A stretch of 64,000 bases of DNA from Clostridiaceae bacterium (GCA_012518845.1 JAAYRJ010000052.1:14381-78380); one strand, 5' to 3'. Positions 1,016 to 63,378 are shown, numbered from the stretch's first letter. Numbers and translations: made by a program. Notes: generated from the letters alone by a model not told the origin.

Positions 1016-1498
1016 ATGAAAGTTGCTATTATAATGGGCAGTAGTTCAGATTATGAGATTGCTCAAAAAGCTTTTCCGCTTTTAGAAAAATTTAACATCC
1101 CATATTTTGTTAGAGTTATTTCAGCTCATCGAGCTCTTGAGATGCTACAAGAATGTGTATCAGAGTTTGAACAAGAAAATGTAAAATGCGTCATTGCTTT
1201 AGCAGGTAAGGCTGCTCATTTACCAGGTGTAGTAGCTGGAATGACAGTTTTACCAGTGATTGGTGTACCAATCAAGGGCTCAGCTTTTTTAGGACTTGAT
1301 TCATTAATGTCTATTGTTCAAATGCCTAAAGGGGTACCGGTTGCTACAGTTGCGGTTGACGCAGCAGACAATGCTGCTATTTTAGCAGCTCAAATCCTTG
1401 CTATTAACTCCAACGACATTACACAAAAATTAAAAGTTTACAAACAAGAATTAGCTGAACATGTCGTTCAACAAGACAAGGAAATCAATACTATATGA
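1016..1498 (+). CDS. purE: N5-CAIR mutase, class I PurE
   Basis: SAHR and AGKAAHLPGV motifs are class I type rather than the class II SAHK/AGRSNGLG type. RBS AAGGAGA lies upstream. Confidence 0.92.
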   Translation: MKVAIIMGSSSDYEIAQKAFPLLEKFNIPYFVRVISAHRALEMLQECVSEFEQENVKCVIALAGKAAHLPGVVAGMTVLPVIGVPIKGSAFLGLDSLMSIVQMPKGVPVATVAVDAADNAAILAAQILAINSNDITQKLKVYKQELAEHVVQQDKEINTI

Positions 1499-2793
1499 GT
1501 GGAATAGTAGGTGTGAGTACTGATAAATCAGTTGTAGCTGCCCATCCTATTATTTATGGGGTATATGCATTACAGCATCGTGGACAGGTAAATACAGGTG
1601 TTGCTTTGTTAGATAATAATCAGTTGGTTGTTAGAAAAGGCTCTGGACAGATTAATGCTTTATTTCCAGATAATATTTCAATGAATATACCAGGAGATAG
1701 GGGTCTAGGTCACGTCAAATATGGCGAGTATTTACAATATGATATTGAACAACCGATATTGCCAAAAGAATATAAAATTAATGGAACAAATTGTCTGATT
1801 ACAATAGATGGCAATATTTTAAACAAAGACTTTTCTTTACACGATTTGGCTCTAGCTTTAAATTCATCTTTGCAAACAGGCAAAGAATATCTGAGTAAAT
1901 TGCAAGGTGCTTTTGCAGGAGTTTATCTGGATCCTTATAAAATGATAGGTTTTCGAGATCCGGTTGGTTTAAAACCACTGTATGCAGGTAAGTTTGATCA
2001 TGGTTATATTTTAGCCTCGGAAACTTGTGCAATTGATTCTACGGGTGCAGATTTAATTCAATCCGTAGACAATGGTGAAATGGTTGTAATTCAAAAAGAC
2101 AAGATTGATTTTTATCGTTACACAGAAAAATTACCAAAGAAAAAATGTATCTTTGAACTTGTTTATATCTCAAGACCGGATAGCTATTTTGATGGATTAT
2201 CTGTCTATCAAGCTAGAAGTCAGATGGGCAAGATTTTATATGAAGAATATCCAACAAGTGCTGATATTGTTATGGGTGCACCAGACTCAGGTCTAATAGC
2301 AGCTGTAGGATATGCTGAAGAATCTAAAATTCCCTATAAAGATGGTATTATAAAAAACAGATATGTAGGTAGAACCTTTTTAACTACAGATGAAAGTGAA
2401 CGCAAAACAGATATTTTTATTAAATTTAATCCAATTAAGGAAGTATTAAGAGATAAAGAAATTGTTTTAGTTGATGATTCAATAATCAAAGGTTCAACTA
2501 TCAAACGAACTATAAAAATGTTAAGAAATGCTGGCGCAAAAAAAATTCATGTTCGAATTTCTTCACCAATTTTGAGGTTCCCTTGCAATTTATCTATGGA
2601 TATTCCAAATGTTAATGACCTAATGGCACATCAAAAAGATGTTGAAGAAATTCGCCAAGAAATTAACGCAGATTCACTTTATTATCTTTCGATGGAGGGT
2701 TTACTTAAAGCTTGTGGACAAGATGATTTTTGTGATCACTGTTTTACAAATAATTATCCAATCAAACCATATGAGGAGGGACTATGGGTTTAA
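1495..2793 (+). CDS. purF: Amidophosphoribosyltransferase (Fe-S type) with a degenerate Ntn glutaminase site
   Basis: LQHRGQ, RDPxGxxPL, PRTase loop VLVDDSIIKGST, and cluster Cys residues (KKC, FPC, CDHC) are present. The start ATG overlaps the purE stop (ATATGA). The protein begins MSGIVG, not MCGIVG. Confidence 0.9.
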   Translation: MSGIVGVSTDKSVVAAHPIIYGVYALQHRGQVNTGVALLDNNQLVVRKGSGQINALFPDNISMNIPGDRGLGHVKYGEYLQYDIEQPILPKEYKINGTNCLITIDGNILNKDFSLHDLALALNSSLQTGKEYLSKLQGAFAGVYLDPYKMIGFRDPVGLKPLYAGKFDHGYILASETCAIDSTGADLIQSVDNGEMVVIQKDKIDFYRYTEKLPKKKCIFELVYISRPDSYFDGLSVYQARSQMGKILYEEYPTSADIVMGAPDSGLIAAVGYAEESKIPYKDGIIKNRYVGRTFLTTDESERKTDIFIKFNPIKEVLRDKEIVLVDDSIIKGSTIKRTIKMLRNAGAKKIHVRISSPILRFPCNLSMDIPNVNDLMAHQKDVEEIRQEINADSLYYLSMEGLLKACGQDDFCDHCFTNNYPIKPYEEGLWV

Positions 2794-3836
2794 CATATAA
2801 GGATTCTGGTGTAGATAAAGAAGCTGGCTATAAACAAGTTAAATTAATCAAAGACATGCTCAAGTCGACTTATACTTCTGGTGTTATTACTGACATAGGT
2901 GGATTTGGTGGTATGTTTCGTTCACCTCAATCAGAGTATGAAAAACCAATTTTGGTTTCGGGTACAGATGGGGTTGGTACAAAATTAGATTTAGCTTTTA
3001 GGACCGATATTCATAATACAGTTGGTATTGATTGCGTTGCCATGTGTGTTAACGATATTTTATGCCAAGGGGCAAAACCATTGTTTTTCCTAGATTATAT
3101 TGCAACAGGCAAATTAATTCCTACAAAGATGGCAGAAATTGTTTCTGGTGTAGTTGAAGGTTGCAAGCAATCAGGCATGGCTTTAATTGGTGGTGAAACT
3201 GCTGAAATGCCGGGCATATACCAAGAAAATCATTATGATTTAGCTGGTTTTGCAGTTGGAATGGTTGATGAAGCAAAAGTTATCGTACCAGAGCGGGTAC
3301 AGGCCGGTGACAAATTAATAGGTCTCCCATCTAGTGGTATTCACTCTAATGGTTTTTCGCTCGTAAGAAAAATAATTTTTGAGCTGCAAAATAAGAGTTT
3401 AGAAGAGTATATACCGGAATTAGATCAAACTTTGGGCAAAAATCTTTTGACGCCAACTAAAATTTATGTAGATGCTGTTTTACCATTAATTGATAAATTT
3501 GATTTGCATGGTATCTGTCATATTACAGGCGGTGGTATTATCGAAAATTTACCAAGAGCTTTAGGACAAAATCAAACAGCTCTTGTAGATCTTTCAGATT
3601 TTGAAATTCCAGCCATATTTAAGCTACTAGCCAAGTGGGGCAAGATAGAAACTAAAGAAATGTTTAATACATTTAACATGGGTATTGGTATGATTTTGAT
3701 TGTAGGAGAGGAAGATTATTCTGCCGTAACTGACGATCTAAATGAACGTCAACAGGATTTCGTTGAAATGGGAGAAGTACTATTAGGTGACGAAGATATC
3801 GAAATTAAATATTCTGACGATTGCTTAGAAATTTAA
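2784..3836 (+). CDS. purM: AIR synthase (phosphoribosylformylglycinamidine cyclo-ligase)
   Basis: YKDSGVDKEAGY, GTDGVGTK and GGETAEMP motifs. The start overlaps the purF end, after GAGGAGGGA. Confidence 0.93.
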   Translation: MGLTYKDSGVDKEAGYKQVKLIKDMLKSTYTSGVITDIGGFGGMFRSPQSEYEKPILVSGTDGVGTKLDLAFRTDIHNTVGIDCVAMCVNDILCQGAKPLFFLDYIATGKLIPTKMAEIVSGVVEGCKQSGMALIGGETAEMPGIYQENHYDLAGFAVGMVDEAKVIVPERVQAGDKLIGLPSSGIHSNGFSLVRKIIFELQNKSLEEYIPELDQTLGKNLLTPTKIYVDAVLPLIDKFDLHGICHITGGGIIENLPRALGQNQTALVDLSDFEIPAIFKLLAKWGKIETKEMFNTFNMGIGMILIVGEEDYSAVTDDLNERQQDFVEMGEVLLGDEDIEIKYSDDCLEI

Positions 3837-3853
3837 TAAAGAAAGTCATTATT

Positions 3854-4474
3854 ATGAAAAAAATTGCCGTGTTGCTTTCGGGTGGTGGATCTAATTTACA
3901 AAGTTTAATTGACAGTCAAAAAGTTGGCTATTTTAAAGGTGAAATAAAACTTGTAATCTCAAATAATAAAAATGCTTTTGGGCTCGAAAGGGCCAGCAAT
4001 AACAACATAGAAGCTATCTATCTCAACAAAGAAGATTATCCGAATAATGAACAATATGATCGTCAAATTTTGAGCCTATTTAAGCAGTATAAAATTGATC
4101 TGGTTGTATTAGCAGGATATCTAAGATATGTAACGCCTGTTTTGCTTGAAGCCTATCCCAATCGTATTATTAATATCCATCCTTCTTTATTACCAGCCTT
4201 TGGAGGCAAGAATTTTTATGGCTCTAAAGTACATGAAGCTGTTTATCAAAGAGGTGCAAAAATTTCTGGAGCAACTGTTCATTTTATTGATGAGGGCCAA
4301 GATACTGGACCGATTATTATTCAAGAGAGTTTGCCGTTAGATCAAGATTGGCAACCAGAAGAAATCGGTCAAGCAGTACTAAAAATAGAACATAAAATAC
4401 TACCTTTAGCAGTTAAATATTTTTGTGATGAGAAATTAACAGTTAAAAATAAGCGTGTTTATATCAAAGCTTAA
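3854..4474 (+). CDS. purN: GAR formyltransferase
   Basis: KIAVLLSGGGSNLQ, HPSLLPAFGG and GATVHFIDEGQDTGPII. The ATG at 3854 is preferred over the TTG at 3821, which overlaps the purM end. Confidence 0.92.
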   Translation: MKKIAVLLSGGGSNLQSLIDSQKVGYFKGEIKLVISNNKNAFGLERASNNNIEAIYLNKEDYPNNEQYDRQILSLFKQYKIDLVVLAGYLRYVTPVLLEAYPNRIINIHPSLLPAFGGKNFYGSKVHEAVYQRGAKISGATVHFIDEGQDTGPIIIQESLPLDQDWQPEEIGQAVLKIEHKILPLAVKYFCDEKLTVKNKRVYIKA

Positions 4475-4529
4475 TTTCATAATTTAAACAATAAATCACT
4501 GAGCAAATGATCAAAAATCGGAGGCAAAA

Positions 4530-5786
4530 ATGAAAGTATTAATAATAGGGAGTGGTGGGCGTGAACACGCTATAGCGGATAGTTTGATTAAAAATGACAG
4601 AATAGAAACTGTTTATTTTTTAACTCATAATGGTGCTGCAAAAGGCAAATTAAAAAATGCCAATTTCCCTGATAATAGTAAAAATTCGATTGATCAATTT
4701 TTGTTGAAGTATCCAGTAGAGCTTGTGATAGTGGGTCCAGAACAACCACTTTCTGAAGGCATAGTTGATTATATTCAAGAAAAAGGTATTAAAGTTTTTG
4801 GTCCACATAAAAAGGCTGCCAGATTAGAAGCGAGTAAAGCTTTTGCCAAACGATTTATGGAGGAACAAAATATTCCAACTGCTAAATATATTGAGTATGA
4901 CAATTATGAATCAGCTCTTAATGGTCTAGATAATTTTGAATTTCCTTTAGTAATTAAAGCCGATGGCCTTTGTGCAGGCAAAGGTGTTGTTATTTGCCAA
5001 AATTATTCTGAGGCCAAAAAAGCTTTAGCCGATATGTTTAAAGAAAAGATTTTTGGTGACCAAGCCCAAACAGTTATTATAGAGGAATTTTTGTCTGGAT
5101 TTGAAGCCTCTTTACTTTGTTTTGTTTCAGGTTCCAAAATATACCCTTTAGACACTGCTATGGATTATAAGAAAATTTATGAAAATGATCTTGGACCAAA
5201 TACTGGTGGTGTAGGGATGATATCACCTAATCCATACTGGAACAGTAATTTACAATCTCAATCGGATATTATTATTAAAAAAATAGAAAATGGTCTAAGC
5301 CAGAGAGGTCTTGAGTATAGTGGAATATTATTTATTGGATATTTGATTGAAGATGGAAAAATCTATGTTCTAGAATTTAATGTGCGTTTTGGTGATCCTG
5401 AAACAGAAGCTCTTTTGCCACGTCTTCATTCTGATTTATTAGAGAATATAGAAGAATCAATTAATCGTTTGCCTGTTAATTTAAAGTTTGATAATAAAGT
5501 AGCATTGGCAACTTTATTAGTTTCAAAAGGTTATCCCGCTTCATTTGAGAAAGGCAAAGTTATTTCAGGCTTAGAAGATTGTGACCCTGATATTAAGATT
5601 TATCACAATGGGACAAAAAATATTGATGATAAAATTTTAAGTAACGGTGGACGAGTACTGTCTATAGTCGCAGTTAAAGATACATTAGAAGAGGCAAGAG
5701 AAGCTGTTTATCAAAATATTCCTAAAATTTCATTTGAAAATATGAGCTATCGAACAGACATTGGCCAACTCAAAAATTATGATTAA
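4530..5786 (+). CDS. purD: Phosphoribosylamine-glycine ligase (GAR synthetase)
   Basis: MKVLIIGSGGREHA N-terminus, ATP-grasp core and GDPETE motif. Confidence 0.94.
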   Translation: MKVLIIGSGGREHAIADSLIKNDRIETVYFLTHNGAAKGKLKNANFPDNSKNSIDQFLLKYPVELVIVGPEQPLSEGIVDYIQEKGIKVFGPHKKAARLEASKAFAKRFMEEQNIPTAKYIEYDNYESALNGLDNFEFPLVIKADGLCAGKGVVICQNYSEAKKALADMFKEKIFGDQAQTVIIEEFLSGFEASLLCFVSGSKIYPLDTAMDYKKIYENDLGPNTGGVGMISPNPYWNSNLQSQSDIIIKKIENGLSQRGLEYSGILFIGYLIEDGKIYVLEFNVRFGDPETEALLPRLHSDLLENIEESINRLPVNLKFDNKVALATLLVSKGYPASFEKGKVISGLEDCDPDIKIYHNGTKNIDDKILSNGGRVLSIVAVKDTLEEAREAVYQNIPKISFENMSYRTDIGQLKNYD

Positions 5787-5798
5787 TTTTTGAGTTGG
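5765..5798. terminator. Perfect 14-bp hairpin between convergent purD and the acyltransferase gene
   Basis: CCAACTCAAAAATT (5765-5778), 6-nt loop, AATTTTTGAGTTGG (5785-5798). It includes the purD stop codon. The flanking U-tracts are poor. Confidence 0.5.
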
Positions 5799-21771: not shown

Positions 21772-21867
21772 TCTTTTATCGCTTTACCACTTTAGCGAGA
21801 TAAAGTAAAATTGTTATCAGAAAACATTTGTTATAGATTAATGCTATTATTTTTATTGGAGAAAAAG

Positions 21868-22680
21868 ATGTCTAATCAAGTAATTTTAGAAAAATTTAAT
21901 TTGGCGATTGAGTATATGACTTTGCTTGCTGAGTATAACTATAAATTAATCGATCTTAATATGATTGAACCTTTTCGAATTGAGGACAAAGAATTTCAAC
22001 CTAGTAGTCTTGTATTTGAGAGAAATGAAACTATGTATGCTATTCGAAGTGACTGGACAAGGTCACTGTTAAATTATAATGATAGTTATTTTCTTGATGA
22101 TCGTATGTTTTGTTATTTTGGAACTGTTATTCGTGATTATCAATCTTTTTATCAGGCGGGTGTTGAACTTTACGAACCAAGCGAAGTAGAAATGCTAAAA
22201 AGTATTCAAATTCATTTAGACTTTGTTAAAAATAAAATAAGAAATCAAGGTAAAAATATAACGGCTTTAATTCTAAATAATGATCGATTTATTGATTTGT
22301 TTATTGAAAAATATGATTTGTCGGAAAGTATTCGTACTTTGATTTATGAAAAAAATCTGAGTGAATTAAAAAATCAGCTTGAGCCTGATAATCCTCTCTT
22401 AAAAATTCTACAAGCAAGAGTTAGCGAGCAGTATACTTTGCTAGCGAGCGAATTTTCGAATACAGAAGAATTGCAAACTATTGAAAAAATCAAAAAAATA
22501 GCAGATCAAGAAAATCTTAAGTTTATGATAGACTTGTCGTTTAAATCACCTCAGGGCTATTACAATGGTTTATATTTTCAGGCTTTCATAAATTATCATA
22601 CCCCAATTTTAAGTGGTGGTGAGTACGATAATCGGGCTTTTGGTATTGCCCTCAATATTGAAGATGGAGGACTTTTATGA
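21868..22680 (+). CDS. hisZ: ATP phosphoribosyltransferase regulatory subunit (short HisZ)
   Basis: HisRS-like motifs (IRSDWTRS, YQAGVELY, GGEYDN). It is translationally coupled to the short-form hisG. The ATG at 21868 follows GGAG. Confidence 0.75.
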   Translation: MSNQVILEKFNLAIEYMTLLAEYNYKLIDLNMIEPFRIEDKEFQPSSLVFERNETMYAIRSDWTRSLLNYNDSYFLDDRMFCYFGTVIRDYQSFYQAGVELYEPSEVEMLKSIQIHLDFVKNKIRNQGKNITALILNNDRFIDLFIEKYDLSESIRTLIYEKNLSELKNQLEPDNPLLKILQARVSEQYTLLASEFSNTEELQTIEKIKKIADQENLKFMIDLSFKSPQGYYNGLYFQAFINYHTPILSGGEYDNRAFGIALNIEDGGLL

Positions 22681-23282
22681 TTACTGTTGCCTTGCCTAAA
22701 GGTAGATTATTAAAAGAAGTTATTGCATATTTAGAGTCCTGTGACCTAAAAAAATATGCAGATAAACTTGATCCAAAATCACGACTACTCTTTACGGATG
22801 TTGATGGAATCCGTTTTGTTTATGCTAAAGGCAGAGATGTGCCTACCTATGTTGAATCAGGAATAGCCGATTTAGGTTTTATTGGTTCTGACATTATTAC
22901 TGAAAACAAATTTGAATTGTTAAATGTGTCGCAACTGCCATTTGGCTATTGTCGTTTTTCATTATGTGGTTTACCAGGTGTTAAGCAATTTAAGAGTGTA
23001 GCCACAAGCTTTTACAATATTTCTTTTCAATATTTTAAAAAGAAAAAACAGCAAGTTTCATTTATCCATTTACACGGCTCGGTTGAGCTTGCACCTTTAT
23101 TAGGTTTAGCAGACGGAATCGTCGATATTGTCCAAACAGGTAGCACTTTAAAAGCAAATGGTTTGATTGAGTATGAAACGATTATGGATGTCCAGGCTTG
23201 TTTAATTGCTAATAGGCAAACATTTTATACAAAAGAAGCTGAAGTTTATCCTTTTTTGAAAAAGTTAGGAGTTTTTGAATAA
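22677..23282 (+). CDS. hisG: ATP phosphoribosyltransferase, short form
   Basis: ITVALPKGRL N-terminus and DIVQTGSTLKANGL motif. At 201 aa it is the HisZ-dependent type. Confidence 0.92.
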   Translation: MITVALPKGRLLKEVIAYLESCDLKKYADKLDPKSRLLFTDVDGIRFVYAKGRDVPTYVESGIADLGFIGSDIITENKFELLNVSQLPFGYCRFSLCGLPGVKQFKSVATSFYNISFQYFKKKKQQVSFIHLHGSVELAPLLGLADGIVDIVQTGSTLKANGLIEYETIMDVQACLIANRQTFYTKEAEVYPFLKKLGVFE

Positions 23283-24541
23283 TGAAATTAGAGTTACCTG
23301 AAATTCAGGCTGCTAGAGAATATCTTGCTCAGTTTTCCCAAGTTAAAGAAGCCGAAGATCAAGAATCTTTAAGCCAAGTAATGGATATTCTGCAAAATGT
23401 TCGCAAGTATGGTGATAACGCTTTATTTGAATATACAGAGAAATTTGATGGTCAGAAATTAGAGAAGTTTAAAGTTCCAGAAACGTGGCTCGAGCAAAGT
23501 TATCTTGCACTGGAGCCAGAGTTGCGTCAAGCATTGGAATTTATTAAGCAGCGAATTCAAAAGTACGAAGAACAAATAAAATATAAAGACAAAGAATTAA
23601 CTGAATTTAAATATGTCTATCATCCGATTGAAAAAGTAGGTTTCTATGTCCCAGGCGGCACAGCTTTATATCCATCATCTGTACTTATGAGTATTATTGC
23701 TGCTCAGGTAGCCGGCGTGCCCAAGATCTATGCAGTTACACCAACTTTTGAAGAAAATAATATTACATTTGCAACTCTTTATATTTGCGGCGTGACGAAT
23801 GTTTATCAAATAGGTGGAGCTCAAGCAATTGCAGCTTTAGCCTATGGCACCGAGAGCATTCCTAAAGTCGATAAAATTGTAGGCCCAGGAAATCGTTATG
23901 TAGCTTTAGCAAAACGATTAGTCTTTGGTGAAGTTGGAATTGATTCTATAGCTGGACCTAGTGAAATTTTGCTTTATATTGATGAAAATGTTGATCCAGA
24001 ATCAATTACATTAGATATTTTTGCTCAAGCAGAACATGATCCAGATGCTAAAACTTTTTTATTAGCAGAAAATAAAAAGATTTTGAAAGATATACATGCT
24101 TTGATTGTGAAAAAACTGCCTGAGCAAAAACGTAGTGATATTATTACTCAGTCAATTAATAATAATCATTATTCCATTATTGGTGAAGCAAAAGATTTAA
24201 TTGCTATTATTAATCAGATAGCACCAGAGCATGTTTCGATCCAACATGCAAATTCAGACGAAATAATTTCAAAAATCCATTATGCTGGTGCAATTTTTAA
24301 GGGCAATTACTCGCCAGAGGCCATAGGCGATTATGTGGCAGGACCATCCCATGTCTTACCAACAAGTGGTAGTGCCAGATTTAGTCATGGTCTTAATGTA
24401 AATGATTTTTTGACTAGTCATGCAATTATAGATATTGAACCTGAAACTTATCAGCAAATTGCTCCGTATGGGATCAAAGTCGCATATGCGGAAGGACTTT
24501 ACGCACATGCCGAAAGTTTAGAGGCAAGATTAAAAGAATAA
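23282..24541 (+). CDS. hisD: Histidinol dehydrogenase
   Basis: IAGPSEIL, QAEHD and PEHV motifs. Confidence 0.94.
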   Translation: MKLELPEIQAAREYLAQFSQVKEAEDQESLSQVMDILQNVRKYGDNALFEYTEKFDGQKLEKFKVPETWLEQSYLALEPELRQALEFIKQRIQKYEEQIKYKDKELTEFKYVYHPIEKVGFYVPGGTALYPSSVLMSIIAAQVAGVPKIYAVTPTFEENNITFATLYICGVTNVYQIGGAQAIAALAYGTESIPKVDKIVGPGNRYVALAKRLVFGEVGIDSIAGPSEILLYIDENVDPESITLDIFAQAEHDPDAKTFLLAENKKILKDIHALIVKKLPEQKRSDIITQSINNNHYSIIGEAKDLIAIINQIAPEHVSIQHANSDEIISKIHYAGAIFKGNYSPEAIGDYVAGPSHVLPTSGSARFSHGLNVNDFLTSHAIIDIEPETYQQIAPYGIKVAYAEGLYAHAESLEARLKE

Positions 24542-24582
24542 TATTTTATTGAATAAAATACCTAGTGAAAGAGAAGAACAAT

Positions 24583-25572
24583 ATGATAATCATGAATCGT
24601 AATACCAGTCCCATCAAGCCTTTGACAGATGAACAAATTTTTAATGCTGTGAAAAAAACAAATTATAATCAATATCCAGATCAGGAACGAATAAATTTTA
24701 TTAATTTATATGCCGATTATTTTGGCTTTAATCCAGACAATATAGAAGTAGCTAATGGCTCTGATGAATGGATTCAAAAATTGATTATAACGCTTGGTAA
24801 AAACGGGGTAATGTCTTTAAATCCCGATTTTGTGATGTATCAAATCTATACAGAACAATTTTTGCCAGAAATTTATTTTGTTAATGCTGAGCCTGATTTT
24901 ACCTTTGATTTTGATAAAGTAATTGTTGCCATCAAAGCTAAAAAACCTTCATTATTTTTAATATCTAATCCACAAAATCCAACCGGTACGATGTTTAGTA
25001 CCCAAGATTTGCAACGTTTAGCTGATGCTATGGCAGAGGTTGATGGTTATCTTGGCTTAGACGAGTGTTATATTGATTTTGCTAAAGATTACGAACGACC
25101 AAAGGGAAAAAATATTATTATTCTCAGAACTTTAAGTAAAGTTTATGGGATGGCAGGCTTGCGTGTAGGGATGGCAATTGCGGAAAAAGAAACTTTGGAT
25201 ATAATCACTCAAATAAATCATCCTTACCCTTTAAATTCACTAGCGTTAAATTTAGCCAGTGAATTGTTTTCGGATAAAAAAGCTTTACAAAAATTCAAAA
25301 ATTATCAATTTGAGAGTAAAGCTAGATTAGAGACAGCCTTAGATCAAGTTTCAGATTTAATGGAAATAAAAGAATCTTATACTAATTATATTTTTACTTA
25401 TGGTGATGCTGCAATAGATATGGCAAACTTTTTATTGGATAAAGGATTTTTGAGTCGCATCTATGATGTACCGATCTTACAAAATGCAGCTCGTTATTCA
25501 ATTATCAAATTAGAAGAATATCAAGCATTAAATGAGGCAATTATAGAATGGAGAAATCAGTATGTTGAGTAG
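24583..25572 (+). CDS. hisC: Histidinol-phosphate aminotransferase
   Basis: SNPQNPTG and LSKVYGMAGLRVG motifs. The start is uncertain (GTG 24565, ATG 24583 or ATG 24592). Confidence 0.88.
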   Translation: MIIMNRNTSPIKPLTDEQIFNAVKKTNYNQYPDQERINFINLYADYFGFNPDNIEVANGSDEWIQKLIITLGKNGVMSLNPDFVMYQIYTEQFLPEIYFVNAEPDFTFDFDKVIVAIKAKKPSLFLISNPQNPTGTMFSTQDLQRLADAMAEVDGYLGLDECYIDFAKDYERPKGKNIIILRTLSKVYGMAGLRVGMAIAEKETLDIITQINHPYPLNSLALNLASELFSDKKALQKFKNYQFESKARLETALDQVSDLMEIKESYTNYIFTYGDAAIDMANFLLDKGFLSRIYDVPILQNAARYSIIKLEEYQALNEAIIEWRNQYVE

Positions 25573-26143
25573 GAAAAGAGAAACGCTAGAAACTAAAATC
25601 GAATTGAAATTAGCCGAGCAAACAGATACAAATGAAAGATCGGAAATAGATACAGGTATAGGTTTTTTTGATCATATGCTTACTTTGTTGGCATTTCACT
25701 CCAATTTATTTTTATCGGTTAAGGCTGATGGTGATTTAGAAGTAGATTTTCACCATACAGTTGAAGATACTGGTATTGTTCTTGGTGAATTAATTTATGA
25801 GCTATATCAAAGCAAAAAGTCTTTTGGACGTTATGGTTTTTTCTACTTGCCGATGGATGAATCTTTAGCAAGAGTCACACTTGATTTATCTGGACGACCA
25901 GGTTTTTATTTTAACTGTAATTTTGCTAGTGAAAAAGTTGGAGAGTTTGATACGGAACTTGTTAAAGAGTTCTTCAATGCGGTGGCAATGAATGCGAAAA
26001 TGACTTTGCATATTGATTTGTTAAAAGGTGGAAATAGCCATCATGAAATTGAAGCTGTCTTTAAGGCATTTGGTCGTAGCCTGGCTATTGCCTTAGAAAC
26101 CAAAACAGGTGGAGTGCCATCTTCCAAAGGGGTGATTGCATGA
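25562..26143 (+). CDS. hisB: Imidazoleglycerol-phosphate dehydratase
   Basis: GIGFFDHML, HHTVEDTGI and GGNSHHEIEA motifs. Monofunctional (193 aa). Confidence 0.94.
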   Translation: MLSRKRETLETKIELKLAEQTDTNERSEIDTGIGFFDHMLTLLAFHSNLFLSVKADGDLEVDFHHTVEDTGIVLGELIYELYQSKKSFGRYGFFYLPMDESLARVTLDLSGRPGFYFNCNFASEKVGEFDTELVKEFFNAVAMNAKMTLHIDLLKGGNSHHEIEAVFKAFGRSLAIALETKTGGVPSSKGVIA

Positions 26144-26847
26144 TTGATATTATTCCAGCAATAGATTTAATCGAAGGTCAAAGTGTTAGATTAGAACAAG
26201 GCGATTATCAAACAAAATCCTTAATGCCAAGAACAGCTAAAGAAGCGATAAAATTTTACAATCAATTTGAACAAGTTAAAGGGATTCATATTATTGATCT
26301 TCTAGCAGCTAAGGAAAAAAAGGCAAAAGAGATGGATTTGATTTCAGAACTTAGGGCTTTGACAGATTTGCCAATACAAATTGGTGGTGGTTTGAGAAAT
26401 GAAGAAACAATTCGGTTTTACGATAGTAAAGGCATTGACTACTTTATTTTAGGTACAAAAGCAATAACAGATTTTGCTTGGCTAGAAGAGATGACAAACT
26501 TATTTCCAGCCCGAATTATAGTTGGCATTGATGCTAGAGACGATTATATTTATATAAATGGCTGGACAGAGAATTCCGGTATTCAAATTCCAGATCATTT
26601 AGCAAAAATTGAAAAACTTAATTTGCAAGGAATTATTTATACAGATATCGCTAAAGATGGGATGAATAAAGGTCCCAATTTTGAAAAAACTGCCGCCTTA
26701 GCTAAAAATACAAGACATAAAGTAATTGCTAGCGGTGGAGTACGTGATAATTCAGATTTGAAAAAGTTAGCAGCACTTGAAATACCAGCGGCAATTGTTG
26801 GTAAAGCAGCTAACACAGATGCTTTTTGGCAATCAATTGTTGATTAG
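26140..26847 (+). CDS. hisA: ProFAR isomerase
   Basis: IIPAIDL, QIGGGLR and ASGGV motifs. Its ATG overlaps the hisB stop (ATGA), leaving no room for hisH. Confidence 0.92.
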   Translation: MIDIIPAIDLIEGQSVRLEQGDYQTKSLMPRTAKEAIKFYNQFEQVKGIHIIDLLAAKEKKAKEMDLISELRALTDLPIQIGGGLRNEETIRFYDSKGIDYFILGTKAITDFAWLEEMTNLFPARIIVGIDARDDYIYINGWTENSGIQIPDHLAKIEKLNLQGIIYTDIAKDGMNKGPNFEKTAALAKNTRHKVIASGGVRDNSDLKKLAALEIPAAIVGKAANTDAFWQSIVD

Positions 26848-26856
26848 AGGGCAGAC

Positions 26857-27624
26857 ATGATAGAGAAAACAAGAAAAATTCTTCCTTGTCTTGATATAAG
26901 AAATGGGAAAGTAGTTAAAGGTGTAAATTTTGAAAATATTAGAGAAATGGGCGATCCAGTCGAGTTGGCAACCAAATATGGAGCGGCAGGAGCTGATGCC
27001 CTAGCTTTTTTAGATATAACAAAAACTAAAGAGAAGCATGGATTTTATCTAGATCTAATTTCTGAAATTACAAGCAACATTGAGATTCCGCTATTTGTGG
27101 GTGGAGGTATTAGCACGCTTAAAGATATTAATTTAATATTAAATGCTGGTGCCAGCAAAGTTAGTATTGCTTCTGCAGCTCTAACAAATCCTAACTTTAT
27201 CTCAGATGCAGCTTCTGAATTTGGACACGACAAAATAATTATTGCATTAGATGTTGCCCAAGATTTAGCTGACAATAAATATTATGCTTATACTCATGGA
27301 GGTCAGAAAAAAACAGATTTTGAAGTGTTTGAACTAATTGAAAAATTTGACCAAATTGGAGTGTCAGCATTTTTGATTACGGGAATTTCATTTGATGGCT
27401 CAAAATCTGGCTTTGACCTTGCTTTTTTTAAAGAAGCAGGAAAAAGAACAAATACAACTTTAATCGCAAGTGGTGGTGCTGGAAAAATTGAAGATTTCGT
27501 TGATTTATTTCAAAAAACAAATGTTGAATATAGTTTAGCAGCTTCTATTTTTCATCAAAACACAGTAAATATTAGAGAGCTAAAACAAAATTTAGCTTCG
27601 AAAAACATTAATGTTAATCTGTAA
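26857..27624 (+). CDS. hisF: Imidazole glycerol phosphate synthase cyclase subunit
   Basis: ILPCLDIRNGKVVKG, VGGGI and ASGGAG motifs. The catalytic Asp equivalents (D13, D132) are present. Confidence 0.93.
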   Translation: MIEKTRKILPCLDIRNGKVVKGVNFENIREMGDPVELATKYGAAGADALAFLDITKTKEKHGFYLDLISEITSNIEIPLFVGGGISTLKDINLILNAGASKVSIASAALTNPNFISDAASEFGHDKIIIALDVAQDLADNKYYAYTHGGQKKTDFEVFELIEKFDQIGVSAFLITGISFDGSKSGFDLAFFKEAGKRTNTTLIASGGAGKIEDFVDLFQKTNVEYSLAASIFHQNTVNIRELKQNLASKNINVNL

Positions 27625-27679
27625 TTTCTCTCTAGAAAAAAGCAAAATTTCCAAACTAATTAAAAGCGAAAGGATTATT

Positions 27680-28303
27680 ATGCAACCTGATTTTACAAAA
27701 AATAATGGCTTGTTATCTGTTATTTTACAGGACTTTGATACAAAACAAGTTTTAATGAATGGCTTTATGAATGAAGAAGCCTATAAATTAACCAAACAAG
27801 AAAATGTTGTTTGGTTTTATTCTAGATCAAAACAACGTCTTTGGAAAAAAGGGGAATCAAGTGGCCATGTTCAACATGTTGTAGAAATGACACTTGATTG
27901 TGATCAAGATGCCCTTCTAATTCAAGTTGTTCCGGCTGGACCAACTTGCCATCTTGGCAATACCAGTTGTTTTGATGATCCTTATTTTAATCTGGAAATT
28001 CTAGAAAAAACTATTCAAGATCGCATAAAAAATCCTAAAGAGGGTTCCTATACAAAATATTTGTTGGAACAAGGTTTAGATAAAATTTTGAAAAAAAGCA
28101 GTGAAGAAATGACCGAAACTATAATCGCTAGTAAAAATCAGGATAAAAATGAGATAATAGCAGAAGCATCGGATTTACTTTACCATGTAATTTTATTGTT
28201 AAATTCTCAAAAAATTTCTTTGAATGATGTCAAAGAAAATTTAGCAAAAAGACATGGCAAGGTACAGTCTTACAAGCGTCGAAAAGAAATTACAAATTGG
28301 TAA
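27680..28303 (+). CDS. hisI: Bifunctional PR-AMP cyclohydrolase / PR-ATP pyrophosphatase
   Basis: WFYSRSKQRLWKKGESSGH and DCDQDALL (HisI part), and a C-terminal HisE helix bundle (EASDLLYHVILLL). The ATG at 27680 follows AAAGGA. Confidence 0.9.
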   Translation: MQPDFTKNNGLLSVILQDFDTKQVLMNGFMNEEAYKLTKQENVVWFYSRSKQRLWKKGESSGHVQHVVEMTLDCDQDALLIQVVPAGPTCHLGNTSCFDDPYFNLEILEKTIQDRIKNPKEGSYTKYLLEQGLDKILKKSSEEMTETIIASKNQDKNEIIAEASDLLYHVILLLNSQKISLNDVKENLAKRHGKVQSYKRRKEITNW

Positions 28304-28428: not shown

Positions 28429-29091
28429 TTGAAAGCGAGAATTTTGGTGAACAATCAAAGTTTATTCATAAGTGTCTTAAATCGAGGTAAAGCTGAGGAA
28501 TTCTTGAATGAGATGCGTATTTTTGATCTGACAGGTGGCATTGTCATGTTAGGCGAAGGAACAGCGACTAATCGGCTATTACAAATTCTTGGCTTAGCAG
28601 AAACTCAAAAAGAAATAATCATTCTTCCCATTTTTGATTCCAAGTTTGAAGATCCAATCCATGAGATGATGTTACATCATTTTCAAGTGGATAAAAGAAG
28701 AAAAGGAATTGCATTTTCAATTCCAATAAGTTATTTAGGTGCAGAAAGTGTATTACCAAAAGATAAAATGTATGACCCAGCCTGCTTTTTTTCTCAATGT
28801 ATTTTTGCTGTTGTTGATGAAGGTCAAGGTCAGCAGGTAATGAAACATGTTCAAGCAACCGGACAAACGGGTGGCACAATCATTCATGCGCGTGGTGCAG
28901 GAGTTCCAAGTGATTCTTACTTTCCTTTCAAAATAGAACCTCAAAAGGATATAGTCATGATTTTAGTAAAAACAGAGCGAGTAAAAACAGTCCAAAATTA
29001 CTTGAACGAAAAAATGAATTTTTCTGATCCAAGAAAAGGTATTATTTTTACCTTGCCAGTATCTAGAGTGACAGGTATCTTTCAAGGTTAG
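28429..29091 (+). CDS. Tandem PII-like (two P-II fold modules) protein
   Basis: Two copies of the pattern hhhxVVxxGxxxxVhxxhxxxGxxGGTIhxxxG ... GIxFxhPh: SLFISVLNRGKAEE...GIAFSIPIS and CIFAVVDEGQGQQ...GIIFTLPVS. The start is uncertain (TTG 28429, or GTG 28447). Confidence 0.65.
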   Translation: MKARILVNNQSLFISVLNRGKAEEFLNEMRIFDLTGGIVMLGEGTATNRLLQILGLAETQKEIIILPIFDSKFEDPIHEMMLHHFQVDKRRKGIAFSIPISYLGAESVLPKDKMYDPACFFSQCIFAVVDEGQGQQVMKHVQATGQTGGTIIHARGAGVPSDSYFPFKIEPQKDIVMILVKTERVKTVQNYLNEKMNFSDPRKGIIFTLPVSRVTGIFQG

Positions 29092-29099
29092 GGGTTAAA

Positions 29100-31074: not shown

Positions 31075-34000
31075 CTACTTAAAGTAATCAACAGCGGATT
31101 TAAATAATCCAAGATCATATTCACCGACGACATTTTTATACAAATGCTTGCCAATTCTTTCGCTATGTCCCATCTTTCCAAAAATTCTACCATCTGGTGA
31201 AGTAATACCTTCAATAGCATAAATGGAGCCGCTTGGATTGTATTCTATTTCATAAGATGGTTTACCAGCCATATCTACATATTGTGTGGCAATTTGACCG
31301 TTTTTGATTAATTCATTTAATGTTGCTTCATCTGCTATAAATCTTCCCTCGCTATGAGCTATTGGTACTTGATAAATTTTGCCAAGCTCCGCATTTGCTA
31401 ACCAAGCTGACTTATTTGAGACAACTTTTGTTCGCACAATTTTTGATTGATGGCGCTGGATTGTATTATAGGTGAGAGTAGGTGCGTTAGGTTTTAGGTC
31501 AACAAATTTACCATAGGGGAGTAAACCCAGTTTGATTAAAGCTTGAAAGCCGTTGCCAATTCCCAAAATTAGGCCATCTCTATTTTCTAATAAATCTTCT
31601 ATTGCCAACCTTATTTGAGGTTTACGTAGGAAGGTTGTAATAAATTTTGCTGCACCTTCAGGTTCGTCACCTGCAGATGCCCCGCCAGAAAGAAAAATAA
31701 TTTGACTTTCCTTAATTTTTTGAGTCAGTTTTTGCACAGATTCTTGAATAGAGTTAGGTTTTAAGTTTTTGATAATGAAAATCTCAGGTTCAGCACCTGC
31801 TTGAAGCCAAGCTTTTGCAGCTTCATATTCACCATTTGTACCTGGAAATACAGGTAATAATACTTTTGGATTTTCAATTGTTACATTAGCTTTTAAAGTT
31901 TCATTTAGCTTGCAAGAGATCTCTGGAATGGATGTTTTGTTTTCTGGAGCTTTTGTCCTAAACACAGATTCTAATTTATTTTCATACAGTTTTTCTAACT
32001 CATCGATTTCCAGAATTGTGTTTTGGAAGCTGAGCTGATATTTGCCCGTTGTTTGTCCTAGCTTTTTTACAACAAATTGCTCACTGTTGAAAGCAGATAA
32101 ATCTAATGTGTCTTTGAGCTCTATCACAAAAGATCCATAATTATATTTAAATAGCTCTGTTTGACAAATGTCTTGCTCAAATTCAAAACCAACTCGGTTC
32201 CCAAGTGTCATTTTAAAAATTGCTTCAGCAATACCGCCATGTCCAGGCGTATATGCCGCTAAAACTTCACCATCCCTAATTGCATTGACTATATATTCAA
32301 ACAATGCTAATTGTGAAATTTTTTCAGGTAAATTATTATTTTCAAATGGTTCTAATACATAGACTTGATGCTCTGGCTTTTTAAATTCTGGCGATATAAT
32401 ATTTTTAGAATAATCTGTTGTCACAGCAAAGGAAACTAATGTAGGTGGAACGTCTAAATGCTCAAATGAGCCACTCATGGAGTCTTTACCGCCAATAGCC
32501 GCAATTTTATAATCCATTTGCGCTTGGAAAGCACCTAGCAAGGCAGCAAAAGGCTTACCCCAACGTTTGGGATCATTTTCTAGTCGTTCAAAATATTCTT
32601 GAAAGGTTAGGTAAATTTCATTAAGATCTGAACCTGCCGCTATCAGCTTAGCTATTGATTCCACTACAGCTAAGTAAGCACCGTGATAGGGACTTTTTTC
32701 TGATATATAAGGATTAAAGCCAAAGGCCATTAAAGAACAATTTTCTGTTTCATGGTTTTCAACTGAAATTTGATGTGCCATTGCTTGAATGGGAGTTCTT
32801 TGGTATTTCCCTCCATAAGGCATCAAAATTGTACCAGCCCCTGCAGTAGAATCAAATTGTTCTGCCAGACCACGTTTTGAGCAAACATTTAAATCAGTTA
32901 CTAAACCTTCCATATTTGCTTTAAAATCAGATTGGGGTGCAGATTTTTGATAAGTCTGAGGCTTAACAGTTTCAATCTGAATATGTTTTTGAGCACCGTT
33001 GGAATCCATAAATTCACGTGAAAGATCAACTATTTTTTGATCGCGCCAATGCATTACTAGGCGTGGCTCTTCAGTAACTACTGCAATTACTGTTGCTTCA
33101 ACATTTTCACTTTCTGCTAACTTAATAAAACGATCTGCATCTTCTGGAGCTACGACAACAGCTAACCTTTCTTGGGATTCGCTAATTGCTAATTCGGTCC
33201 CATCTAAACCTTTGTATTTTGTTGGAACCAGATCCAAATTAATTTTCAGCCCAGCTGCTAGTTCACCAACTGCCACCGAGACACCACCTGCTCCAAAGTC
33301 ATTGCAACGTTTTATTAATTGTGAAACTTGTTTATTTCTAAACAATCTTTGCAATTTTCTTTCTTCTGGCGCATTACCTTTTTGTACTTCTGCACCTGAA
33401 GTTTCAAATGAGTCGACAGTATGTGATTTTGAAGAGCCTGTAGCTCCACCAAGACCATCACGTCCTGTTCTGCCACCTATTAAAATTACGACATCATCTG
33501 CAACTGGAGTTTCGCGTCTGACATTTTCTGCTGGGGTTGCAGCTACAACAGCACCAATTTCCATTCTTTTAGCCGCATAGCCAGGATGATATAATTCAGC
33601 AACTTTGCCGGTAGCAAGACCAATTTGGTTACCGTAGGAACTGTAGCCATCGGCAGCAACGGTGGTAATTTTTCTTTGTGGTAACTTTCCTTCAAATACA
33701 GGTTTATTATCTAAGGGATTAGCTGCCCCAGTTACACGCATGGCAGCGTAAACATATGAACGTCCAGATAAAGGATCTCTAATAGCACCACCCAGACAAG
33801 TTGCTGCTCCACCAAAAGGCTCAATTTCGGTTGGGTGATTATGGGTTTCATTTTTAAATAATAATAGCCATTCTTCTAGCTCACCATTTATTTCAATATC
33901 GATTTTCACCGTACAAGCATTAATTTCATCAGAAACATCAAGCTTGTCTAATTGACCATTTTCTCTTAAGAATTTTGCTACAATCGTACCAAGATCCATT

Positions 34001-59339: not shown

Positions 59340-59413
59340 TCTGTTTCTTATTACTATAGGTTTTATTTTTTCATAACATAATGAATATGATGATTAGAAA
59401 ATAGGGGAATAAG

Positions 59414-60163: not shown

Positions 60164-60225
60164 TTGTTGGATAAATACTTTTTAGCTTGATAGTTATGTG
60201 ACAAACAAAAATATATGAGGTTTAG

Positions 60226-61194
60226 ATGGTAAACATAGGAATTGTTGGTTTTGGCAATTTAGGAGCAAGTATTGAAAAATGTCTGGAAAATTTTCCAGAC
60301 ATTAATTTAATTACAGTTTTTACAAGACGTAAACCAGATTCAATAAATAGCAAAGTTAAAGTAGATAAATTTGAGAATATTGATCAATATGAAACAGAGA
60401 TTGATGTTTTGATTTTAGCCGGTGGGTCACAAAAAGATATTCCGGAACAAGGCCCACAATTAATAAGAAATTTCAACACGGTTGATGTTTTTGATAATCA
60501 TGCTGAAGTAAAACAATATTATACAAAAATGAATAAAATTGCCTTGGAAAATAATAAGGTTGCTGTTGTTTCTACTGGCTGGGATCCAGGTTTATTTTCT
60601 TTGGAGCGAACTTTGGCTGATGCAATTTTGCCAAAAGGTAATACACATACTTTTTGGGGCCCTGGTTTAAGCCAAGGTCATAGTGATGTAGTACGTCGTG
60701 TTCCTGGCGTAAAGTATGGTGCTCAATATACAATTCCTAATAAAAAGATGTTGGACGAAGCAAGGCAAGGCAAAAAAATTGAATATAGTACTGCAACCGC
60801 CCATCAAAGAGATGTCTATGTTGTTCTTGAAGAAACTGCTGATTCAGAAGAAGTTAGTGATACAATCAAGAATATTCCTGACTATTTTGCACCGTATCAA
60901 ACAAATGTATATATTATTTCTGAGGAAGAGTTTTTTGCTAACCACCAAGGTATGCCACATGGTGGTACAGTAATACGTTTAGGGGAAACTTCACAGCAAG
61001 TTAAAGCTAATTTTGAATTCAATCTGAATTTATCTAGCAATCCAGAATTTACAGCATCAGTTAGCTTAGCTTATGCGAGAGCAGCTGCCCGCTTAGCAGC
61101 AGAAAAAAATTATGGTGCCAAGACAGTTTTAGATATTCCTATTTCATATCTGTCTAGTAGAACTAAAAGTGAGTTACTTGCTAAATATATTTAA
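60226..61194 (+). CDS. ddh: meso-diaminopimelate D-dehydrogenase
   Basis: IGIVGFGNLGASIEKCL N-terminus and WDPGLFS and GPGLSQGHSD motifs, as in Corynebacterium Ddh. Confidence 0.85.
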   Translation: MVNIGIVGFGNLGASIEKCLENFPDINLITVFTRRKPDSINSKVKVDKFENIDQYETEIDVLILAGGSQKDIPEQGPQLIRNFNTVDVFDNHAEVKQYYTKMNKIALENNKVAVVSTGWDPGLFSLERTLADAILPKGNTHTFWGPGLSQGHSDVVRRVPGVKYGAQYTIPNKKMLDEARQGKKIEYSTATAHQRDVYVVLEETADSEEVSDTIKNIPDYFAPYQTNVYIISEEEFFANHQGMPHGGTVIRLGETSQQVKANFEFNLNLSSNPEFTASVSLAYARAAARLAAEKNYGAKTVLDIPISYLSSRTKSELLAKYI

Positions 61195-61219
61195 AGTTTC
61201 TGAATTTTCTTACTGCAGC

Positions 61220-61247
61220 TTGAATTTTTCTATAAAATACCTAGTAT
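61220..61247 (+). promoter_or_regulatory. Putative glnN promoter
   Basis: TTGAAT (61220-61225), 16-nt spacer, TAGTAT (61242-61247). I saw no TnrA/GlnR-type TGTNAN7TNACA box. Confidence 0.3.
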
Positions 61248-61290
61248 ATTACTTTAATATGATGTTTGACTAATTATGCGAGGGAAAATT

Positions 61291-63378
61291 ATGACACGTT
61301 TTGAATTAATTGAAAATTTTGGCATCAATCAATTTGGTAAATCGGTGATGCGGGATCGCTTGCCTAAACCAGTCTATGAAGCGTGGGAACAGGCAACTTA
61401 TCAAAATATTCCAATTAATCGTGAAATAGCCGATGCAATTGCTCATGCTATGAAGGTTTGGGCTCTTGAAAGAGGCGCAACCCATTTTTGCCATTGGTTT
61501 CAACCCTTAACAGGCAAAACAGCTGAAAAACATACTGCTTTTCTCAAAGAAGATAAGCATGGTTTACCGATTTCTAGATTATCTGGTAAATCATTAATGC
61601 GTGGCGAAACAGATGGTTCATCGTTTCCGCATGGTGGTCTTAGGGACACATTTGAGGCCCGAGGTTATACTTTCTGGGATGTTTCATCCTATGCTTACGT
61701 CAGACAAAATGTTTTATATATTCCTAGTGTCTATGTTAGCTATAATGGTGCCAAATTAGATATGAAAATGCCTTTGATCAAGGCTCGCGAAGCTCTAGAT
61801 CAACAAGCGACTAGGATGCTTCATCTGTTAGGAAAAACAGAGGTTAAATTTGTCAGACCGATGATTGGTTTAGAGCAAGAATTCTTTTTAGTAGATACTG
61901 AAGCTGCAATGAAAAGACCAGATTTACGCTATTGTGACAGAATGTTATTTTCAGCAGAAATGCCAAGAAATGGAGATTACGAATCACCATATTTTAGCTC
62001 AGTTAGTGAGAAAGTCAAAGCCTTTATGCATGATGTAAATCTAGAATGCTGGGCTCTTGGAATTTATACAGTTATTGAACATAATGAAGCGGCACCAGGT
62101 CAATATGAGTTTGTGACTGCATATGACGAAGCAACGACTACCATAGATCAAAATATGCTACTCATGGATGTTTTGAAAAAAGTTGCCTTAAGGCATGGAT
62201 TCACTTGCCTGCTATCTGAAAAGCCATTTGCTAAATTGAGTGGTTCAGGTAAACATAACAATGTTTCTCTAATTGATTCAACGAATGATAATCTATTTGA
62301 ACCTGGTGAAAAAGCATCAGAAGACTTACAGTTTATTGTCTTTTTATCAGCATTTATTCAAGCAGTAGACAAATATCAAGTTTTAATTCGGATGGCTGCT
62401 TCAAATGAAGGGAATGATCACCGTTTAGGTGGACATGAGGCTCCGCCGGGTGTAATTTCAATTTATTTAGGTGATAAATTACATGATCTATTTATGCAGT
62501 TGGCAGAAACTACAGAAATAAGCGCTGTAAAATTAAAAGAAATGACAGCTCCAATTGCCAATTTAGCTACTCAAAGCATTGATGCTACTGATCGTAATCG
62601 GACAGCACCTGTTAGTTTTTCTGGTAATAAGTTCGAAATCAGGATTTTAGGCGCTTCCATGAATGCCTCATCTCTTAATACATTTTTGCTTGCAGCCATG
62701 GCAGAAAGTCTTGAAAATATGGCGGACGAAATAGAGAAAATAAATCCCCAAAGCCAAGATGAACTACATAAAGCAGTAATGCAAGTTACACATGAAGTTA
62801 TGCGCGAGCATCATCATATATTATTTGCAGGCAATGGCTATGACGAAACATGGTATCAAGAAGCAGAAAAACGCGGTCTAATTAAGTTAGACAATTATAT
62901 TGATACTGTTGAAGCTCTAATTGAACCAAAAACGATTAAGCTTTTGGAAAAATTTGATGTCTTAAACAAAATTGAATTAGAAGCCCGTTATCAAGTTTTG
63001 GTTAAGGATTTTATTCATTCAGTTAAAACTCAAGCAAGAATTATTACGCGCATGGGACAAGAAGGTATTTATCCAGCCTTGTTGCGTTATCAAATTGACT
63101 TAGAAAAAGTGGCTATAAATGGCTACAGCAAATCGGCTGAAACTAGAGCGAGATTTAATGCGGATCTGATGGATAAGCTCGATGCTAAAACCAAAGAATT
63201 GGATAACATGATTAATGACATAATTAAGACAGATGATAAAAAGCAAATTATCCAAGATATGCTAGATAAATTACGACCTGCAATCGAAGAGTTAGCTGAT
63301 TTACTACGCACAATAGAGCTTTATTCTCCATATGATATTTATCCTTATCCAACAGAAGAAGATCTAATTGTGGTTTAA
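61291..63378 (+). CDS. glnN: Glutamine synthetase type III (GlnN)
   Basis: About 696 aa. It has the GSIII-type N-terminus, the EHNEAAPGQYEF catalytic block and NGSGKHNN-like SGSGKHNN. The ATG at 61291 follows GAGGGA. Confidence 0.88.
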   Translation: MTRFELIENFGINQFGKSVMRDRLPKPVYEAWEQATYQNIPINREIADAIAHAMKVWALERGATHFCHWFQPLTGKTAEKHTAFLKEDKHGLPISRLSGKSLMRGETDGSSFPHGGLRDTFEARGYTFWDVSSYAYVRQNVLYIPSVYVSYNGAKLDMKMPLIKAREALDQQATRMLHLLGKTEVKFVRPMIGLEQEFFLVDTEAAMKRPDLRYCDRMLFSAEMPRNGDYESPYFSSVSEKVKAFMHDVNLECWALGIYTVIEHNEAAPGQYEFVTAYDEATTTIDQNMLLMDVLKKVALRHGFTCLLSEKPFAKLSGSGKHNNVSLIDSTNDNLFEPGEKASEDLQFIVFLSAFIQAVDKYQVLIRMAASNEGNDHRLGGHEAPPGVISIYLGDKLHDLFMQLAETTEISAVKLKEMTAPIANLATQSIDATDRNRTAPVSFSGNKFEIRILGASMNASSLNTFLLAAMAESLENMADEIEKINPQSQDELHKAVMQVTHEVMREHHHILFAGNGYDETWYQEAEKRGLIKLDNYIDTVEALIEPKTIKLLEKFDVLNKIELEARYQVLVKDFIHSVKTQARIITRMGQEGIYPALLRYQIDLEKVAINGYSKSAETRARFNADLMDKLDAKTKELDNMINDIIKTDDKKQIIQDMLDKLRPAIEELADLLRTIELYSPYDIYPYPTEEDLIVV

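Follow-up and report, generated by a model that had tools for sequence, protein, structure and literature searches.

Glutamine amidotransferases are the textbook case of obligatory ammonia channelling, in which the glutaminase halves are deemed essential in vivo, as free ammonia (NH3) is regarded as both scarce and little used. Synthase chemistry on free ammonia without a glutaminase is known from the NH3-dependent NadE, from AsnA and from the small PurL alone in vitro. The C1S and C1A mutants of Escherichia coli amidophosphoribosyltransferase (PurF) lost the glutamine activity and kept the NH3 activity (Mei and Zalkin 1989, as cited in PMC3261824). A hisH deletion mutant of Corynebacterium glutamicum grows on ammonium (PMC3896937), and HisF by itself turns over with ammonium in vitro (PMC11350729); the established elements coupling HisF to HisH are the R5/E46/K99/E167 gate (bioRxiv 10.64898/2026.05.29.728626) and the fD98-hK181 salt bridge (PMC8115485). 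Here we describe a 64-kb stretch of DNA from a Clostridiaceae bacterium, referred to as a whole as the window, in which the glutamine-hydrolysing machinery of PurF, of the large purine synthase PurL and of the HisF/HisH pair is, judging by the sequences, disabled. Purifying selection maintains the operons and, in the enzymes, both the acceptor domains and the glutaminase domains that have died. We estimate a probability of about 0.65 that this organism makes phosphoribosylamine, formylglycinamidine ribonucleotide (FGAM) and imidazole-glycerol phosphate with free NH3/NH4+ and not with glutamine-derived ammonia.

The window (34% GC) is part of an 86.7-kb contig of a biogas-fermenter metagenome (European Nucleotide Archive, ENA, ERZ925077), and the window and the contig flanks, 86.7 kb in all, were covered for extra gene copies. 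The same proteins are found at NCBI as NLJ94235.1 (PurF) and NLJ94260.1 (HisF) under 'MAG: Clostridiaceae bacterium' (MAG, metagenome-assembled genome). The source is an uncultured, low-GC anaerobe with Tissierellia as its PurF relatives. Biosynthesis genes crowd the window, i.e. a pur operon, an aromatic amino-acid block, a his operon, purL, threonine and lysine genes and the glutamine synthetase GlnN (Table 1). Apart from purF, purL and hisF, no amidotransferase-related gene or glutamine-amidotransferase domain was found in the contig flanks or among the open reading frames (ORFs) of the window with at least 150 aa.

The glutamine pocket of PurF differs from the canonical one at several places. 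The gene starts with ATG AGT GGA (M-S-G-I-V-G), its start codon overlapping the purE stop (ATGA), and the Ser aligns with Cys1, the N-terminal nucleophile (Ntn) of the Bacillus subtilis and E. coli enzymes. Against the same two proteins, the oxyanion Asn (Asn102) is replaced by Asp (HNGN to IDGN), the glutamine-anchoring Arg73 is replaced by Lys, and ~30 residues are missing, among them the SDTE/Asp127 loop. The phosphoribosyltransferase (PRTase) motifs VDDSIIKGST and KNRYVGRTF are kept, and the 4Fe-4S ligands C218, C364, C413 and C416 correspond to C236, C382, C437 and C440 of B. subtilis. As in Bacillota, purF is flanked by purE and purM; its product scores 340.7 bits with TIGR01134 (cut-off 350). 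The AlphaFold model has the expected two-domain fold, with a mean pLDDT (predicted local distance difference test) of 84 in the N-domain, and, relative to the PRTase domain, the N-domain has stayed as conserved as it is in canonical pairs (identity ratio 0.77 versus 0.73-0.82). A mis-called start hiding a Cys was considered and rejected, given the ATGA overlap, the position of the Ser directly before G-I-V-G and over 110 homologues that begin with M-S-G.

The Ser-type PurF is an old and widely spread family. We collected the 120 closest proteins from a collection of 5.8 billion proteins. Ser1 is found in all 114 full-length non-Cys proteins of this set, Asn102 is changed to Asp or Glu (mostly Asp) in all 117 aligned ones, and P0100 is the only canonical Cys PurF. 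Schnuerera, Gudongella and Tissierellaceae belong to a wider tier of the family, with 444-450 aa and with Arg73 and Asp127 kept. The proteins of the other tier are shorter (421-434 aa), with R73K and without the Asp127 loop; this tier consists of the clade of the window and of more distant members such as Treponema phagedenis and Lagierella. Both changes are present in 32 of the 32 aligned PurFs of the close clade, in which Ser1, Lys72 and Asp102 are invariant. The Ser1/Asp102 family spans Tissierellia-like anaerobes and T. phagedenis, persists to ~45% identity with invariant catalytic synthase residues, and fills the purF slot of the operon in all lineages examined. Among the 150 nearest PurF clusters of a 50%-identity library, ~20 are without Cys1. 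The representatives P0368 and P0384 of that library are Cys-less PurFs starting with M-A-G or M-G-G, with Asp at the Asn102 position. Ala or Gly in these two clusters indicates that position 1 is no longer a conserved nucleophile. A contig scan with a 29-sequence Ser-PurF alignment, which used generic PRTase patterns, returned mostly canonical PurFs, the Ser-type being present only in L011 and L013; it provided a control set for the state of PurL.

The glutaminase domain of PurL has lost its nucleophile and several further motif residues. The protein is recognized as the large, clostridial type with 1804 bits by TIGR01857 (cut-off 1057). Its nucleophile motif, GLILGIGNGFQ, is encoded by ggc cta att ttg gga att GGC aac ggc ttt caa, and the replacements in the domain are C1079G, C987G, P1035S, F1038A, G1040A, S1145A and G1147S, some of which turn GGFSYGD into GGASAGD and SHGEG into AHSEG. 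GICNGFQ is present in 117 of the 120 closest homologues; the motif was not detected by the regular expression in two, and the remaining one, P0121, shares the Gly. P0121 comes from a 96% identical strain in a different sample, so that the Cys-to-Gly change is at the species level among these 120 proteins. The closest other relative, P0122 (71% identity), keeps the Cys and the GGFSYGD and HGEG motifs. If positions with at least 97% conservation among the homologues are taken as near-invariant, the PurL of the window departs at 20 of 131 such positions in the glutaminase domain versus 24 of 369 in the synthase (Fisher p = 0.004); among the departures are the nucleophile, C987G and changes in the GGFSYGD and HGEG motifs. 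Between the window and the 96% identical strain, the ratio of nonsynonymous to synonymous substitution rates (dN/dS) of PurL is 0.13 overall, with 0.09 for the synthase, 0.17 for the glutaminase and 0.27 for the N-terminal domain. The value of 0.17 shows that the dead domain is retained and not freely drifting.

The purL gene lies apart from the other pur genes of the window. Both purL and purH sit inside the pur operon in Tissierellia relatives, with the order purC-purL-purE-purF-purM-purN-(purH)-purD in L011, L013 and L102, and both have been lost from the operon in the family of the window. A purH was found neither in the window nor in the contig flanks that could be seen. The purL is 25 kb away from the pur operon and on the other strand, and its nearest relatives are Oscillospiraceae-like (~63% identity), a kinship that suggests a replacement by a transferred gene.

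Heavily degenerate PurL glutaminases, in which Gly replaces the Cys and the triad His is missing, are also encoded next to the Ser-type purF in four other genomes. T. phagedenis, with the order purC-purL-purE-purF, reads FGVGAGFAG, Miniphocaeibacter massiliensis IIGLGAGFIG, a Tissierellaceae MAG ILGIGGGFTG and the Tissierellia MAG GCA_030529425.1 VIGIGAGMSA. GxCNGxQ is present at 28 of the 29 Cys-PurF loci with a detectable PurL or PurQ glutaminase, and the association between dead PurL and Ser-PurF has a Fisher p of 1e-4, uncorrected for phylogeny. A single event probably gave rise to all four of these dead PurLs within the operon. The separate purL is live in a sister lineage and dead in the species of the window, which indicates that the PurL glutaminase has died on at least two occasions in lineages with a Ser-type PurF. 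In a different setting, a stand-alone PurQ of an Anaerolineales MAG (L052:4883-5662, CAYOUT010000002.1) also reads GIGNGFQ with Gly for Cys. Its GGFSYGD, HGEGR and HPE are intact and the adjoining PurF is canonical (EEAC, then GVFG); the Gly may reflect either a genuine loss confined to this case or an error of sequencing.

The his operon has no hisH, and HisF has lost the residues that couple it to HisH. No hisH or remnant was found between or beside the his operon genes, or anywhere in the window or the contig flanks, and the overlap of hisB and hisA leaves no room for one. The cyclase residues D13 and D132 of HisF are kept (D11 and D130 in Thermotoga maritima). Relative to T. maritima, R5 is changed to K7, E46 to A48 (codon 26998-27000), D98 to S100 (27154-27156) and E167 to A171 (27367-27369), with K99 kept. 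All 119 other HisFs have E46, and D98, K99 and E167 are almost as constant. The replaced residues cluster at the HisH-docking strand ends, and most of the gate and contact positions presumably lie at strand ends facing HisH, as we read the known structure. All five loci of relatives examined (L002 and L004-L007, two of them NCBI MAG assemblies) have the hisH-less operon, which spans the closest HisF relatives at 57-100% identity, among them L002, GCA_012838135.1, GCA_036789255.1 and JGI/ENA digester contigs. The loss of residues is graded over this clade: R5K is found in most members, the changes of D98 and E167 in a sub-lineage, and that of E46 in the window only. A scan of genome contigs with the HisF of the window alone gave no matches.

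Some further features of the his region may be mentioned here. In the window and throughout the HisF clade P0241-P0250, A54K, R59H/A and S172G are found and T78 and W156 are changed as well, at positions at least 95% conserved elsewhere; Q123, ~89% conserved elsewhere, is replaced by Glu or Asp throughout the hisH-less clade. An outgroup operon on a contig of Logan SRR30801591 (L008) encodes a HisF of 50% identity and a bifunctional HisB, with no hisH between hisB and hisA; its hisH is either elsewhere in the genome or independently lost. In the window (28429-30980) and in all relatives examined (L002, L003 and L004-L007), hisIE is immediately followed by the genes for a P-II-like protein of 220 aa and a DUF1538 protein of 626 aa. 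NCBIfam describes the latter as a fused UmpA+UmpB-like monovalent-cation/H+ antiporter. We speculate that this is a P-II-regulated cation transporter linked to the his operon and related to the supply of ammonium or potassium. A small Trp-repressor-family gene (PF01371) lies immediately upstream of hisZ on the opposite strand in three relatives (L002:22901-23212, L004:4039-4332 and L006:4590-4880) and may be a dedicated regulator.

Table 1. Coordinates of the features discussed, counted from the first letter of the window.
Feature	Position	Strand	Remarks
pur operon purC-purE-purF-purM-purN-purD	273..5786	+	NCBIfam matches
purF, 432 aa, Ser-type	1495..2793	+	Ntn pocket disabled; PRTase domain and 4Fe-4S ligands intact
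AGT codon, Ser for the catalytic N-terminal Cys1 of PurF	1498..1500	+	alignment with homologues
his operon hisZ-hisG-hisD-hisC-hisB-hisA-hisF-hisIE, without hisH	21811..28303	+	
hisB/hisA 4-bp overlap	26140..26143	+	ORF coordinates
hisF, 255 aa	26857..27624	+	TIGR00735, 265.9 (cut-off 294.55)
purL, large (clostridial-type), 1238 aa	31075..34791	-	TIGR01857; between DUF1538 and EamA genes
PurL C-terminal triad-glutaminase domain, residues 966-1238	31078..31896	-	multiple motif replacements
GGC codon, Gly for the nucleophile Cys of the PurL glutaminase	31555..31557	-	one base from TGC
ddh, meso-diaminopimelate dehydrogenase	60226..61194	+	Pfam DAPDH_C; NH4+-using lysine step; context only
glnN, type III glutamine synthetase	61276..63378	+	Pfam GSIII_N, Gln-synt_C, Gln-synt_C-ter; context only

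The substitutions are real features of this organism. Exact matches of the PurF, PurL and Ddh proteins were found on 11, 9 and 10 contigs, respectively; together with the PurL Gly of the 96% identical strain, they rule out a sequencing or assembly error. An alternative genetic code is unsupported, as table 11 reads the long ORFs through and these proteins have Cys codons at other positions. An earlier note, made from the sequence of this stretch alone, had called the Ser of PurF, the Gly of the PurL triad (GIGNGFQ) and a HisF without partner gene whose acidic HisH-facing residues are Ala or Ser, and had argued against random error and for an effect on all the amidotransferase-type genes of the window. 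All these calls were borne out, at both codons, at E46A, D98S and E167A, and by the 9-11 independent contigs; the lesion of PurF had been underestimated, since Asn102, Arg73 and the Asp127 loop are lost in addition to the Cys. Its view that the synthase or acceptor halves are intact also agrees with the PRTase motifs, the synthase dN/dS of PurL and the cyclase residues of HisF.

The three losses are nested in age, as their distribution among homologues shows: that of PurF is old and wide, that of hisH is intermediate and that of PurL is recent. This staggered order points to a stepwise release from glutamine and no single concerted change. The earlier note had proposed a concerted loss at the level of the lineage. 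The lineage-level part is upheld by the Ser-PurF family, the hisH-less HisF clade and the Gly shared with the 96% identical strain, and the concerted part has to be given up, with a family-wide, a clade-wide and a species-level loss. The phenomenon is also more widespread than the note supposed.

How could the synthase reactions proceed in such enzymes? They are argued to run still, as the proteins are folded, under selection and encoded in intact operons. Free ammonia, which is abundant in digesters and in amino-acid fermenters, would be the simplest nitrogen source. In PurF and PurL, NH3 may pass through what is left of the glutamine pocket and on through the channel to the acceptor sites. 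In HisF it may enter by the barrel mouth, which would be opened by Ala at two of the four charged gate residues. Ammonia, ambient and intracellular, that stems from amino-acid fermentation in high-ammonia digesters would make the glutaminase halves dispensable. The samples carrying these genes are biogas and anaerobic-digester metagenomes, and the niche suggested before was thus right in being ammonia-rich and wrong in being gut- or rumen-like. Both the Ddh lysine route and the GlnN-type synthetase had also been correctly recognized (DAPDH_C and GSIII_N matches); the GlnN product has 695 aa in the source record, which probably sets its start differently, and its presence implies that glutamine is still made.

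Several observations weigh against the use of free ammonia by these enzymes. The NH3-dependent activity of canonical PurL and HisF is weak at neutral pH. The ammonia needed by E. coli HisF has been termed 'unphysiologically high' (PMC3896937). Some members of the wider PurF tier may bind glutamine, as they keep Arg73 and Asp127. In PurL the triad His and Glu are still present, and its glutaminase domain is under purifying selection, which would fit a structural role. The sister lineage has a Ser-type PurF and an apparently live PurL, a pairing that rests on the sister samples ERZ794979 and ERZ794980 and on no single contig. The outgroup HisF of L008 keeps E46, K99 and E167, with D98N. Since this operon also lacks hisH while the gate is kept, the absence of hisH from an operon is weak evidence, and the residue losses carry the argument. 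It is also possible that a hisH, a purQ or a canonical purF is encoded outside the visible 86.7 kb.

This last point leads to the possibility that glutaminases act in trans, with a canonical PurF, PurQ and HisH encoded elsewhere and the copies in the window being paralogues or docking synthase subunits. In its favour, the search covered 86.7 kb of the genome, hisH can sit outside the his operon (cf. L008), the PurL of the sister lineage is live, and an archaeon has the Ser-PurF Mlab_0150 as a paralogue in addition to a canonical PurF (PMC3261824). We consider this explanation unlikely, as HisF lost exactly the HisH-coupling residues D98, E46 and E167, the docking site for PurQ in the large PurL is filled by its own dead domain, the Ser-type gene occupies the purF slot of the operon in every lineage examined, and the 86.7-kb contig has no second copy of any of them.

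For PurF one could also imagine that Ser1 is a working Ntn nucleophile, as in the Ser-type Ntn hydrolases, and that glutamine or another amide donor is used. Removal of the Met would expose Ser1, and the invariance of Ser1 and Asp102 over the close clade resembles a re-tuned pocket and not decay, with Arg73 and Asp127 retained in the wider family. This seems very unlikely to us given that the C1S mutant of E. coli PurF is cited in PMC3261824 as having no detectable glutamine activity, that an acid takes the place of the oxyanion-hole Asn, that the clade of the window has lost both glutamine anchors (R73K and the deleted Asp127 loop), that position 1 is Ala or Gly in some members of the family, and that the partner PurL is dead in these genomes too. 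Pathway decay, in which purines and histidine are taken up and the substitutions mark early pseudogenisation, would be in line with the many peptide and amino-acid ABC (ATP-binding cassette) transporters in the window, with a pur operon devoid of purH and of an in-operon purL, and with HisF and PurF scores slightly under the NCBIfam cut-offs. It is the least probable of the three, as every ORF is intact, the dN/dS of PurL is low both overall and in the synthase domain, identical proteins occur in many samples, and Ser-PurFs down to ~45% and hisH-less operons down to ~57% identity have invariant catalytic synthase residues.

A broader and more tentative hypothesis, which we hold to be rather less likely than its negation, extends the use of free ammonia to a whole group of ammonia-producing anaerobes, i.e. 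digester- and animal-associated Tissierellia-like Bacillota and T. phagedenis, whose purine synthesis would be wholly glutamine-free. The pocket of PurF would have been rebuilt (Ser1, Lys72 and Asp102) as an ammonium-capture site feeding the pre-existing channel, and the glutaminase domain of PurL would serve solely as a structural plug or an entry port. The lineage of the window would be replaying this process: a live PurL was gained or retained and then inactivated once more, and HisH was given up as well. Such a replay, if true, would speak for selection for glutamine independence and not drift.

If free ammonia is indeed the nitrogen donor, high-ammonia anaerobes can bypass glutamine in this role, and metabolic reconstructions and nitrogen-flux models of Tissierellia, digester communities and T. 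phagedenis would need to be changed. These proteins would be natural enzymes optimised for NH3 capture, of use for the study of channel gating and for engineering glutamine-independent pathways. Their automatic annotation as 'amidophosphoribosyltransferase' or 'FGAM synthase' would conceal the change of substrate. We found no description of a natural Ser-type bacterial PurF, a Cys-less bacterial PurL or a hisH-less operon with an altered HisF in the searchable literature, and the earlier note knew of no such concerted loss either.

Each of the three enzymes has a partial counterpart among known systems. The PurF of the window has the same replacement of the Ntn nucleophile as the E. coli C1S and C1A enzymes, so far as these are cited in PMC3261824. 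Those are laboratory point mutants, whereas here the change occurs in nature, has become fixed across a large family and is accompanied by Asn102 to Asp, R73K and the Asp127-loop deletion. Mlab_0150 of Methanocorpusculum labreanum is likewise a natural Ser-for-Cys PurF; it arose by a recent duplication, coexists with a canonical purF and was not considered to be the pathway enzyme (PMC3261824), unlike the Ser-PurF of the window, which lies in the purF slot of its operon with no other copy visible. Histidine synthesis without HisH in vivo was attributed to ammonia-dependent HisF in C. glutamicum (PMC3896937), and we propose a likeness to our case. C. glutamicum still encodes hisH, whereas the clade of the window has none in the operon and the coupling residues of HisF are replaced in the window. 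The herpesvirus vFGAM-synthase pseudoenzymes (TIGR01739; PMC7605207) resemble the PurL of the window in having lost the glutaminase residues and kept the fold. The viral proteins no longer take part in purine synthesis, whereas the synthase of the bacterial purL is under strong selection and the gene lies within pur operons in relatives. NadE, AsnA and the small PurL have no glutaminase domain or belong to separate families, whereas the PurF and PurL of the window keep a dead one.

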